From the IMG/VR virus record IMGVR_UViG_2740892047_000005: a stretch of DNA of 19,034 nucleotides. One strand, 5' to 3'. This document shows, piece by piece, positions 1,069 through 13,448 of this stretch. How positions within the stretch are numbered: position 1 is the first letter of the stretch; each line of letters starts with the position of its first letter. Under the pieces are notes generated by a model that did no database searches, was not told the origin of the DNA, and saw nothing but the letters and a program-made list of their open reading frames with translations. The position numbers were made by a program, and so were the translations under genes. Origin of the DNA: a virus. Lineage: Duplodnaviria > Heunggongvirae > Uroviricota > Caudoviricetes.

Positions 1069-1336
1069 AAAAACTCCTGCCCGTAAGCTGGGCTGCTGAA
1101 CAAATGAGGGGTTGCGCAGTATCTGGCGGTGGATGGCCGCCGGTTGTCATAACTAAGCCGCCTCGTTGAAGCGACTAAGGTATGAAATGTTGAGTTGATT
1201 TCAGCTGGTCACACCGACGTTCACGCGTCCGTTTCATCCCTCGCACTCCCCGAAGCCTGCTGAAATTCAAGCTGCGGATCTAAGCGGTCATCGCAACGGT
1301 GAATCAGGTGGTTGCCGTATCGTTGCGTTGTTGCGA

Positions 1337-1385
1337 TATGGTGATAATAGCTATTGCTATTGGTGATATCAATACTTATTGCTAT
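1337..1385 (-). promoter_or_regulatory. Candidate pL promoter with two operators (OL1 1347-1360, OL2 1372-1385)
   Basis: On the minus strand: -35 TTGATA (plus 1367-1372), 17-bp spacer, -10 TATTAT (plus 1344-1349). Two 14-bp sites, ATAGCTATTGCTAT (1347-1360, near-palindrome ATAGC-N4-GCTAT) and ATACTTATTGCTAT (1372-1385), are 25 bp apart and share the motif of the OR sites. Seen directly in sequence; function is inferred. Confidence 0.45.
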
Positions 1386-2156: not shown

Positions 2157-2849
2157 TTAACCATGCTTCCTGTACGTCTGCGGCATGCTTCCAATGACCT
2201 TACCGAATATGAACACCCGGTTCATCTCGTCTTTCTCGATCGGGTCCCACGGCGAGTAGCTCTTGTTATCAGAGATAACCAGCAGCTTATCCTTCATCAT
2301 TTGAAGACGTTTTACATGGGCAGTGTCGTCGTACAGAAACGCATAGATGCCATCACCGTCGAAAGATTTAACAGTGATATCAACGAACAGCAGGTCACCT
2401 GGTTCGATCGTCCCTGACATGCTGTCACCGCGCACGTTAATAATGCGGATATTTTCCGCCTTCCTGCCATCGAACATGTGACGAGCATCGTCAAACGAGT
2501 ACTCAACCGAGCGTAGAACTTCCACAAACTCACGGTTGATGACACCCGGTCCGGCACTGACTTCTATATCAAGAACGTCAATCTTGAAGTATTTTGAATG
2601 GCTGACAGCAGGCTTCCCTGATTGTTGACCGTCATTTCTCATCGGGCCTATGCCTGATGAGAGCCATTCTGTTCGAACACCCAATGCATTAGCTATTTCA
2701 ACAATTTTTGTTGAGCCGCGCGCGTTGCCGCTTGTCAGTCTCCAGATTGTGGGTTGAGCTACGCCAGACGCCTTTGCAAGAGCGCCTTGAGACATTCCAG
2801 ATTGTTCCATCGCTAGGTTTAAGCGATCAGCAAGAGTTTCTTTTTTCAT
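2157..2849 (-). CDS. cI: CI-type prophage repressor (N-terminal HTH + C-terminal S24/LexA-like autopeptidase), 230 aa
   Basis: HTH segment SQGALAKASGVAQPTIWRL. S24 motifs: Ala-Gly cleavage-site-like VSAGPG, catalytic Ser in RGDSMSG, Lys in HVKRL. Start set at ATG 2849 (MKKETLADRL...) because the upstream ATG at 2885 lies inside the operator array. The PRM-like promoter implies a near-leaderless mRNA, as for lambda cI. Confidence 0.88.
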   Translation of the reverse strand: MKKETLADRLNLAMEQSGMSQGALAKASGVAQPTIWRLTSGNARGSTKIVEIANALGVRTEWLSSGIGPMRNDGQQSGKPAVSHSKYFKIDVLDIEVSAGPGVINREFVEVLRSVEYSFDDARHMFDGRKAENIRIINVRGDSMSGTIEPGDLLFVDITVKSFDGDGIYAFLYDDTAHVKRLQMMKDKLLVISDNKSYSPWDPIEKDEMNRVFIFGKVIGSMPQTYRKHG

Positions 2850-2858
2850 AAGTTTTAA

Positions 2859-2928
2859 TTTATACGCTTGCGTATTGATGGTCAAAACACGTTTTGCTAT
2901 TGCTTGGATTAATACGCATTGCTATTAT
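2859..2928. promoter_or_regulatory. OR region: three 14-bp operators at 25-bp spacing with divergent PRM (to cI) and PR (to cro)
   Basis: OR3 ATACGCTTGCGTAT (2862-2875, perfect palindrome), OR2 ACACGTTTTGCTAT (2887-2900), OR1 ATACGCATTGCTAT (2912-2925). PR: -35 TTGCTT (2900-2905), 17-bp spacer, -10 TATTAT (2923-2928), overlapping OR2 and OR1. PRM on minus: -35 TTGACC (rc of 2880-2885), -10 TATAAA (rc of 2859-2864), overlapping OR3. Confidence 0.55.
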
Positions 2929-2959
2929 TCATTCATTTCAATACCAATAGGAATTGATA

Positions 2960-3187
2960 ATGACAAATCAAACCATTCAACTCGCAATCAGTATTACAGG
3001 TAGTCAAAAACGACTGGCAGATCTATGCGGTGTAGCCCAACCCACAGTTTGGCGTTGGCTACACGGTGGCGGAATTGATGCCCGCTATGTAATGAAAATT
3101 GTCTCAGCCACTGGTGGAAAGATTAAACCAGCAGATATTCGTCCCGACCTCGCACCATTGTTTAACGCGAGTAATTCTGCCGCCTAA
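2960..3187 (+). CDS. cro: Cro-like HTH regulator (YdaS/DUF1019-like), 75 aa
   Basis: ORF track 2954..3187; preferred start is ATG 2960 (MTNQTIQLAISITGSQKRLADLCGVAQPTVWRWL...) with SD TAGGA at 2948-2952. Divergent from cI across the operator array. HTH resembles YdaS-type Cro analogues (from memory). Confidence 0.8.
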   Translation: MTNQTIQLAISITGSQKRLADLCGVAQPTVWRWLHGGGIDARYVMKIVSATGGKIKPADIRPDLAPLFNASNSAA

Positions 3188-3211
3188 ACTGCGGCGTTAA
3201 CTGATAAGGCA

Positions 3212-3757
3212 ATGACTATGCAACCACTTACATACCAACAGACTAGCGGATTTAGCCCGACTGCGGTGATAAATCGTTCTCAAACAAAACAGGCGCCAGG
3301 CCACGAAAAAATCCGTGATGCCGTTCGCGCCTGGTCGGCTGCAGATAATCAGGATGTTGTTGCCGCACTCATTGTGAATGAGTATCGGGAGCAGGGCGGC
3401 GGCACCATCGATTTCCCTGATGATGTCAGCCGTGCACGCCAGAAGCTGTTCCGCTTCCTCGATAACAAATTCGATTCTGAAAAATACCGAAATAACGTGC
3501 GTGAACTGACCCCGGCAATTCTGGCGGTACTACCGCTGGAATATCGCGGCCACCTGGTTGAGCAGGATAGCTACATGGCTCGGCTGGCTGAAATGGAAAA
3601 GGAACTCAGTGAGGCAAAACAGGCTGTCATTCTCAACGCACCACGCCACCAGAAACTGAAGGAGATGAGTGAAGGCATTGTGTCGATGTTTCGTGTGGAC
3701 CCGGATTTGGCTGGTCCACTGATGGCGATGGTCACCACCATGCTGGGGGCAATATGA
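3212..3757 (+). CDS. YdaT-like protein (CII-position regulator of Rac-type immunity regions), 181 aa
   Basis: Segments IVNEYREQGGGTIDFP and RELTPAILAVLPLEYRGHL resemble E. coli Rac YdaT as I recall it. Immediately downstream of the cro-like gene and upstream of O. Confidence 0.75.
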   Translation: MTMQPLTYQQTSGFSPTAVINRSQTKQAPGHEKIRDAVRAWSAADNQDVVAALIVNEYREQGGGTIDFPDDVSRARQKLFRFLDNKFDSEKYRNNVRELTPAILAVLPLEYRGHLVEQDSYMARLAEMEKELSEAKQAVILNAPRHQKLKEMSEGIVSMFRVDPDLAGPLMAMVTTMLGAI

Positions 3758-13333: not shown

Positions 13334-13448
13334 ACACCGAACCTGCCCCTTTGGAATGGGCCTTTGAGGATACCAGTTAGTGCTGGCGAGCCTCGGTGGG
13401 CTGGTTTCCTGTGCGGCAAAGGTTCATTTCAAATGGTAGGTAAACGTT

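Follow-up and report, generated by a model that had tools for sequence, protein, structure and literature searches.

Background

The operators of phage lambda are 17 bp long. Those of phage 434 are symmetric 14-bp sites in which the outer bases are conserved and the centre is variable, and the cI and Cro proteins of 434 have similar recognition helices. The lambdoid switch of phage 933W comprises three OR sites and lacks an OL3, which gives five natural operators (PMC3317979), and its repressor is reported to be non-cooperative on adjacent sites. In such phages the stretch from cI to pL is known as a mosaic hotspot, occupied by rexAB in lambda and by bstA in BTP1 (PMC8585504; PMC7067206).

The window studied here is the whole 19,034-nt stretch of the Caudoviricetes record IMGVR_UViG_2740892047_000005. 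Its left 5.5 kb is the early region of a lambdoid prophage, whose close relatives are the Escherichia phages 4A7 (genus Bievrevirus), PhiR68_2 and PhiR30_1, annotated in the order exo-bet-gam-kil ... cI-cro-cII-O. Leftmost on the minus strand are bet (1-483), gam (490-786) and a kil-like ORF of 68 aa (862-1068). We propose, with a probability of about 0.9, that positions 1338-1432 are the OL/pL region of this E. coli lambdoid prophage, where OL1 and OL2 would be sites for a 434-like HTH repressor with an S24 domain (and for Cro), whose binding would occlude pL.

Repressor, Cro and the right operator

The cI repressor is encoded on the minus strand at 2157-2849 and has 230 aa, with Pfam matches to HTH_3 in its N-terminal part (E 1.8e-6) and to Peptidase_S24 in its C-terminal part (E 1.3e-18). 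Residues 6-67 of the N-terminal domain match the structures 1sq8, 2r63 and 1per at E values of 1.6e-5 to 6.8e-5. Among solved structures, the DNA-binding domain is closest to the N-terminal domain of the 434 repressor (E ~1e-5), a distant relationship that speaks for the HTH fold only. The recognition helix of cI, AQPTIWRL, is nearly matched by the helix AQPTVWRW of Cro, a 75-aa protein with a YdaS-like HTH encoded on the plus strand at 2960-3187 and transcribed from pR, divergently from cI. Judging by the two helices, Cro is expected to bind the same operators as cI. Downstream of cro lies a YdaT-like gene in the position of cII (3212-3757), followed by O and P.

OR occupies 2861-2926 and is a triplet of one motif with 25-bp spacing: OR3 at 2861-2876, OR2 at 2886-2901 and OR1 at 2911-2926, with the 14-bp cores ATACGCTTGCGTAT (2862), ACACGTTTTGCTAT (2887) and ATACGCATTGCTAT (2912), respectively. 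The pR promoter is on the plus strand, with -35 TTGCTT at 2900-2905 and -10 TATTAT at 2923-2928. On the minus strand, a candidate pRM has -35 TTGACC at 2885-2880, a spacer of 17 bp and -10 TAAATT at 2862-2857; OR2 abuts its -35 and OR3 overlaps its -10. The end of this candidate lies 8 nt short of the cI ATG (2849), and the cI mRNA would therefore be leaderless or nearly so, as in lambda.

The proposed left operator pair and pL promoter

The initial annotation had placed two further copies of the 14-bp motif at 1347-1360 and 1372-1385, 25 bp apart, and both their sequences and their coordinates are correct. The promoter-proximal operator, OL1, extends over 1346-1361 as the 16-bp sequence AATAGCTATTGCTATT (14-bp core ATAGCTATTGCTAT), and OL2 over 1371-1386 as AATACTTATTGCTATT (core ATACTTATTGCTAT). 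The two sites are 25 bp apart from start to start, and their centres are separated by the same distance. With the consensus AATAsnnnnnnsTATT, the motif forms a 16-bp imperfect palindrome, and its symmetry suggests a site for a dimer.

The putative pL promoter lies on the minus strand at 1344-1372, with -35 TTGATA at 1372-1367, a 17-bp spacer and -10 TATTAT at 1349-1344. The leftward promoter overlapping the operators had been claimed before; a promoter scanner retrieved the same site independently, with 10 of 12 matches. OL1 overlaps the first 3 bp of the -10, and OL2 abuts the -35 with an overlap of 1 bp. Transcription would run leftward from a predicted start at about 1337. When pL and pR are both read in the direction of transcription, they share one register: operator 2, on whose last base the -35 begins, then 5 nt, then operator 1, on whose last three bases TATTAT begins. 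The centres of OL1 and OR1 are 1565 bp apart, in line with the earlier statement that the pair lies 1.5 kb left of OR.

Statistical significance and conservation

To avoid circularity, a symmetrised 16-bp matrix was built from the three OR sites alone and the whole window, about 19,000 positions, was scanned with it. The top five positions consist of the three OR and the two OL sites, with OL1 ranking third in the 19-kb window at 16.2 bits and OL2 scoring 14.7 bits. At that threshold, 300 dinucleotide-preserving shuffles gave a mean of 0.087 matches per window, and none of the 300 contained a pair 20-30 bp apart. The pattern ATASNNWTTGCTAT, with at most one mismatch, was found seven times against 0.48 expected. 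These values exclude chance as the source of the OL pair. Promoter-like hexamer pairs, by comparison, were found four times in the AT-rich region against 5.1 expected, which alone is not significant; the significance of pL comes from its fixed register with the operators rather than from its hexamers.

Conservation was summarised over 38 distinct window-type modules as the number of alternative alleles per column. OL1 is nearly invariant (0.25 alternative alleles per column) and OL2 has 0.69, while the spacer between them has 1.56 and the 9 nt upstream of OL2 have 8.2.

The immunity cassette and its natural exchange

Five phages, PhiR26_1, PhiR47_2, PhiR34_1, IdasGreatGrand and Turner, share the window's backbone and are heteroimmune. 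Their sequence is near-identical to that of the window through position 1337 and resumes this identity at 1433; the block in between is unrelated. This delimits an immunity-specific OL cassette of 95 nt at 1338-1432, flanked by GTTGTTGCGAT (1327-1337) and TTTTGTGACTTG (1433-1444). The same five phages also diverge over the cI N-terminal domain, OR and cro (about 2714-3216), with homology resuming at 3217, so the YdaT-like gene is common to both immunity types. PhiR26_1 shares the lipoprotein gene with the window, and its cI C-terminal domain is 100% identical. The heteroimmune block has a motif of its own, AACnnnnGTTGTT-like, in two copies 24 bp apart, one of which matches those phages' own OR at 95% over 19 nt. 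The predicted immunity-determining DNA is two separate patches, namely 1338-1432 and about 2714-3216.

The IMG/VR records were then scanned by the flanks only, that is for GTTGTTGCGAT, 80-110 free bases and TTTTGTGACTTG, and the enclosed blocks were clustered at a cut-off of 80%. Among the matches listed, every block is 95 nt long except for one locus of 96 nt. These matches comprise two cassette types, the 96-nt locus being a one-base-longer variant of type 1 that was split off by the 80% cut-off, and no third immunity type on this backbone was found among them. Again among the matches listed, all 37 loci with the window-type cassette (type 0) have a window-type cI domain, and all 68 with the type 1 cassette have a PhiR26_1-type cI domain; no mixed cassette/cI combination is present among these flank-selected loci. 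Fisher's test on this association gives p = 3e-29, a value that overstates independence, given the loci are related lineages, and that should not be read as a true probability.

The association holds across DNA that recombines. The OL pair is found at 25 different distances from cI, ranging from 1.5 to 2.7 kb, in the 73 loci with a window-type cI domain. These distances, the shared cI C-terminal domain and the many cargoes all point to recombination between OL and the cI N-terminal domain.

Related repressors on unrelated backbones

A cI that is 82-86% identical and has the same helix AQPTIWRL is present in Salfasec13b/ST104 and BTP1 (Salmonella, P22-like) and in Klebsiella phage ST11-VIM1phi8.2. 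In Salfasec13b/ST104 and BTP1 the same motif forms three sites at OR and two at OL, all 25 bp apart, and in the Klebsiella phage it forms three at each operator. The position of pL relative to the operators is as in the window in each case: the -35/-10 hexamers are TTGATA/TATTGT in Salfasec13b/BTP1 and TTGCTA/TATTAT in Klebsiella phi8.2. The Salfasec13b/BTP1 OL pair is located upstream of an N-like gene, and a boxA-like nutL sequence, CGCTCTTTAAC, lies in the leader between them. The heteroimmune phages P22, L and ST64T match this Salmonella module only from the -10 onward, a homology break of the same kind as the one between 1337 and 1338 in the window.

An L063-type OL module has unrelated flanks and the same repressor. 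There, too, a pair of sites with 25-bp spacing covers TTGACT/TATTGT hexamers placed as in the window; OL2 is in effect turned round, which fits expectation because a dimer site is symmetric. PhiR5_1, ST15-VIM1phi2.1 (Klebsiella) and HK639 were considered as relatives of the same immunity and rejected: their cI proteins are 45-82% identical with the similarity in the C-terminal domain, their helices differ, and the operator motif is absent from all three.

Taken together, the shared pL/pR register, the covariation of cassette and cI, the recurrence on unrelated backbones and the conservation of the operator columns support the reading, already given in the initial annotation, of these elements as putative OL/OR operators with a pL promoter.

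The interval between cI and pL

A lipoprotein gene of 126 aa lies on the minus strand at 1547-1927; its signal peptide has the lipobox LLAGC and the protein shows a weak BamE-like match. It had been claimed that this gene and cI are inside the immunity region. Physically, OL and OR do enclose both genes, but the lipoprotein gene is outside the two patches that make up the immunity DNA. In homoimmune phages the slot between cI and OL holds different genes, while heteroimmune PhiR26_1 has the same lipoprotein. Because the gene is shared with a heteroimmune phage and replaced in homoimmune ones, it is, on sequence comparison, an exchangeable cargo (moron) in the hotspot from cI to pL and not an immunity determinant.

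Directly after the lipoprotein stop codon, a terminator-like hairpin with a T-run is found on the minus strand at 1520-1539, and it is kept in five of five aligned phages whatever their cargo or immunity type. It is likely the end of the cI-cargo transcript, where it would insulate pL from read-through from pRM. In BTP1, dRNA-seq shows that cI and the downstream cargo bstA are co-transcribed, with one mapped start site (PMC7067206). By analogy, cI and the lipoprotein gene likely form an operon transcribed from one start and ending at this hairpin.

The pL leader

The transcribed leader of the pL operon would extend over 1069-1337 on the minus strand, followed by the kil-like ORF, gam and bet. 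No ORF of at least 40 aa is present on the minus strand between 1104 and 1546. When the 270-nt leader was translated in three frames in search of a hidden N-like gene, only a 20-codon Arg-rich ORF (1175-1237) and a 38-aa ORF beginning MTTGG were obtained, and the candidate was dropped. The long "Kil" ORFs annotated in relatives continue past a point at which the window has a stop codon. The phi80 N protein gave no tblastn match to the leader. Neither an N-like ORF nor a boxA/boxB nutL, the marks of lambda-type N/nut antitermination after pL, was found in the leader, in contrast with the clear boxA of Salfasec13b. A 63-nt match to phi80 and HK225 (1125-1187) was considered as an N/nut remnant and rejected, as it corresponds to a hairpin and the start of a small ORF, which in phi80 come after N and the N terminator.

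An HK022-type put RNA was sought as a two-stem RNA with GTCGG...GGCG...AGGAWGA...CAAT elements just downstream of pL or pR. The covariance model was built from four sequences representing three distinct sites (putL, putR and the putL-like site of HK639), and known sites score 73-85 bits with it. The best match in the window reaches 9.2 bits at 13389, outside both leaders, although a model of so few sequences could miss distant variants. A faint put-like resemblance seen by eye (TCGGGGAGTGCGAGGGATGAAACGG) was rejected, given the model finds nothing in the leader. Rfam scans of the leader gave no match that passed the gathering threshold, and those that passed the E-value threshold were noise. 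Folding lends no support to a structured leader RNA, with z-scores of -0.59 over its full length and of -1.3 to -1.4 over its halves.

Proposed mechanism

We infer binding, cooperativity, repression, the start near 1337 and looping from sequence. In a lysogen, a dimer of the prophage cI would sit on each of OL1 and OL2, and Cro would take these sites later in infection. With OL1 on the upstream end of the -10 and OL2 touching the -35, RNA polymerase would be excluded from pL, and the kil-gam-bet-exo operon would be silent as long as OL is occupied. The 25-bp spacing of centres at both OL and OR would fit pairwise cooperative binding of adjacent dimers through their C-terminal domains. Upon DNA damage, RecA-stimulated self-cleavage of cI would free pL and pR together. 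Looping between OL and OR, as in lambda, may also occur, the matching sites being 1.5 kb apart; a lambda-style, OL3-dependent control of pRM by looping should not be assumed, however, because only two strong OL sites are present.

Alternative readings

Could the motif have no regulatory function, and be an inherited duplication or a product of AT-rich composition that hitch-hikes with cI? Three points favour this: the region is rich in AT, its promoter-like hexamers are no more frequent than in shuffled sequence, and some linkage is expected when OL and cI are only 1.5-2.7 kb apart. Composition, however, does not produce such pairs in shuffled sequence (0/300), and linkage does not explain how heavy recombination between OL and the cI N-terminal domain has left no mixed OL/cI combination among the loci listed. 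Moreover, modules that have unrelated flanks or come from other genera retain the motif, its spacing and the promoter register, and the spacers vary more than the sites. We regard this as the least probable of the readings considered, with hardly any weight left to it. It is only slightly less improbable that the sites are recognised by Cro or by another early regulator, such as the YdaT-like "cII", instead of by cI, so that pL would not be the immunity target of cI. Cro, too, always covaries with the motif, and covariation cannot separate the two proteins, because they travel together and have near-identical recognition helices. That near-identity nevertheless argues for shared rather than exclusive targets, and to our knowledge cI and Cro act on the same operators in every lambdoid phage studied. 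The comparisons of 933W, lambda, 434 and P22 in PMC3317979 show such shared binding. The OR sites overlap both pR and the candidate pRM, the arrangement needed for autoregulation by cI, and the YdaT-like gene, lying where homology has resumed, is common to the heteroimmune phages. Recognition by cI, and by Cro as well, is therefore the reading we retain.

A separate matter is whether OL is bipartite or tripartite. Only two OL sites score at least 14 bits, so the window departs from the three-operator OL of the lambda, P22, 434 and HK022 paradigm. Three OL operators are a typical rather than a defining lambdoid feature, because 933W is a documented precedent without OL3 (PMC3317979). Upstream of OL2, a candidate weak third site or half-site is found at 1415-1430 (GATAGCAAAAAGAATT), with one good half, ATAGCAA, and one poor half. 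It might be a functional weak OL3, serving higher-order repressor assembly or OL-OR looping and down-regulation of pRM as in lambda. The element belongs to the immunity-specific cassette and not to the shared flank; it is the most conserved block of that cassette, with 0.06 alternative alleles per column over the 38 distinct window-type modules; the half-site TTTTGCTATC occurs at an identical 37-nt offset in Salfasec13b and BTP1; and the Klebsiella relative has three full OL sites. On the other hand, only one half is good, and the 14-bp core (1416-1429) scores 9.8 bits with a five-site 14-bp matrix, no better than chance matches elsewhere in the window. Its centre is 44 bp from that of OL2, which breaks the 25-bp rule, and no such element is present in the L063-type module of the same repressor. 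Its conservation could also come from recent common ancestry of the whole upstream stretch or from an UP-element-like role. We thus consider a functional third site a serious but doubtful possibility, and the two-operator OL1/OL2 reading of the cassette is retained below.

Distribution and significance

Of 5,426 complete E. coli genomes, 506 (about 9%) carry the 118-nt OL stretch and 11 have the window's exact arrangement. Among the matches listed, none of five records carries an annotation under the OL match. A description of these operators, those of BTP1 included, was not found in the literature searched, whose scope left out most subscription journals. The kind of element is textbook material; what is new is that the operators of a common repressor type were not found described in that literature.

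The analysis assigns a putative function to a 95-nt stretch within widespread E. coli prophages, and defines an operator consensus with 25-bp spacing for a widespread specificity that includes the medically relevant Salmonella phages BTP1 and ST104. Homoimmunity and superinfection immunity between such prophages would become predictable from sequence. The analysis also marks exact boundaries of the slot for exchangeable cargo from cI to pL, known as a hotspot of anti-phage defence genes, and the two-allele cassette between fixed flanks is a natural illustration of modular immunity exchange. The understanding of lambdoid switches is unchanged.

It is unlikely, on our assessment, that the switch of this family represents a departure from the lambda paradigm. 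Such a reading would combine two OL operators and a distal half-site 44 bp off, uniform 25-bp spacing, nearly the same helix in cI and Cro, and an E. coli lineage without N, nut or put. If pRM, for want of an OL3, were not shut off by looping, as has been argued for 933W, lysogen stability could be affected. High spontaneous induction is reported for BTP1 of epidemic Salmonella ST313 (PMC5322425). Were the departure real, the OL architecture might relate to this induction, which is speculation.

Comparison with known systems

Lambda OL/pL and OR/pR-pRM provide the closest general model. As in the window, pseudo-palindromic operators are common to two divergent early promoters that flank cI, the proximal site overlaps the -10 and the second touches the -35, OR has three sites, and OR2 abuts the pRM -35. 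Lambda likewise has a self-cleaving repressor with HTH and S24 domains, bet, gam and kil downstream of pL, and a cargo slot between cI and pL that ends in a terminator (rexAB in lambda). The window differs from lambda in its 14/16-bp core of other sequence, its uniform 25-bp spacing, its two strong OL sites, the lack of an N gene or nutL after pL, its YdaS-like Cro and its YdaT-like "cII". The OL-OR distance is 1.5 kb in the window and 1.5-2.7 kb in its relatives.

In comparison with 434, the recognition helix differs, being QPTIWR in the window, and this accounts for the difference in half-site, AATAs in the window against ACAA in 434. The specificity of the 933W repressor is unrelated to that of the window, which has in addition the conserved distal half-site, a possible weak third site. 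HK022, HK75 and HK639 resemble the window in having no N gene after pL, and the annotation of HK75 gives oL1-3, pL and putL in the same relative order as in the window. They resemble it also in the cI of HK639, which is 45% identical. HK639 differs in the absence of the window's operator motif; HK022-type phages have a put antiterminator RNA, whereas the covariance model detects none in the window's leader.

BTP1, ST104 and Salfasec13b differ from the window in their P22-like backbone, in the N-like gene and nutL that follow pL, and in their cargo and cro/cII/replication context. They nonetheless carry the same repressor family, with a cI that is 86% identical, an identical recognition helix, three OR sites and two OL sites.

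Repressor, Cro and the cro-proximal site

The recognition helices of the window-type repressor and Cro are near-identical, reading AQPTIWRL in cI (2157-2849) and AQPTVWRW in Cro (2960-3187). In the heteroimmune PhiR26_1 type, which carries its own cI N-terminal domain, the corresponding helices (SQAAIQKI and SQQAVYKW) are less similar to each other than those of the window-type pair. In terms of Pfam families (2960-3757), cro is assigned to "YdaS_toxin" and the gene in the cII position to "YdaT_toxin". Given these YdaS/YdaT-family genes are located where a lambdoid switch normally has cro and cII, the "toxin" names appear to be misleading.

A fourth operator-like site, AATACCAATAGGAATT, is found at 2940-2955, with OR1 29 bp to its left; it lies downstream of the -10 of pR and upstream of the ATG of cro. 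It scores 14.2 bits, which ranks it sixth in the window. The phages with a related repressor on unrelated backbones, i.e., Salfasec13b, BTP1 and Klebsiella phi8.2, present a weaker match at an equal offset. The site overlaps the Shine-Dalgarno sequence of cro, and hence its conservation may reflect just the ribosome-binding site.

A second OL module

A second OL module allele for the same cI domain is present past the cI start, at a distance of about 2673-2715 nt, in L063, L066, L068, L069 and loci like these. In the L063 type, the flanks are unrelated, and two sites with a 25-bp spacing lie over TTGACT/TATTGT; its OL2 is in effect an inverted copy of the window's OL2.

Cargo between cI and OL

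The interval between cI and OL, which serves as a cargo slot, is occupied in the window by a lipoprotein gene on the minus strand (1547-1927), whose product of 126 aa gives a weak BamE-like match. Other occupants, seen in the relatives, are GevT/GevA, HipA-like pairs, an ASCH protein with a hypothetical protein, and BstA; the slot can also be empty. As a guess, the lipoprotein's role would be superinfection exclusion. The stretch of approximately 87 nt from the OL cassette to the terminator hairpin (1433-1519) is kept in both immunity types, with every cargo.

The pL leader and the region after cro

The search for an N-like gene, a nut site or a put RNA in the pL leader (1069-1337, minus strand) found none. 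This leader contains an Arg-rich mini-ORF of 20 codons (1175-1237, minus strand; MKRTRERRCDQLKSTQHFIP, then a stop). In the heteroimmune relatives PhiR26_1 and PhiR47_2, the position of this stop is CAG, and the annotated "Kil" runs through it to reach 125-128 aa.

A 63-nt element (1125-1187, minus strand), composed of a hairpin and the start of an ORF beginning MTTGGHPP (ATG at 1150), is common to the window, phi80, HK225 and Enterobacter phages. Its place in phi80 is after N and the terminator of that gene. This ORF spans 38 aa in the window, in a different frame from the 68-aa kil-like ORF; the two share one frame in PhiR5_1 and PhiR26_1.

On the pR side (3179-3211), a gap of just 24 nt separates cro from the YdaT-like gene, and a small hairpin (3179-3195) spans the cro stop.

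Comparison with BTP1

BTP1 (locus L213; 1154-1219 and 3281-3321) is a member of the window's immunity family and has just two OL sites. It is the prophage of epidemic Salmonella ST313, for which high spontaneous induction has been reported (PMC5322425).
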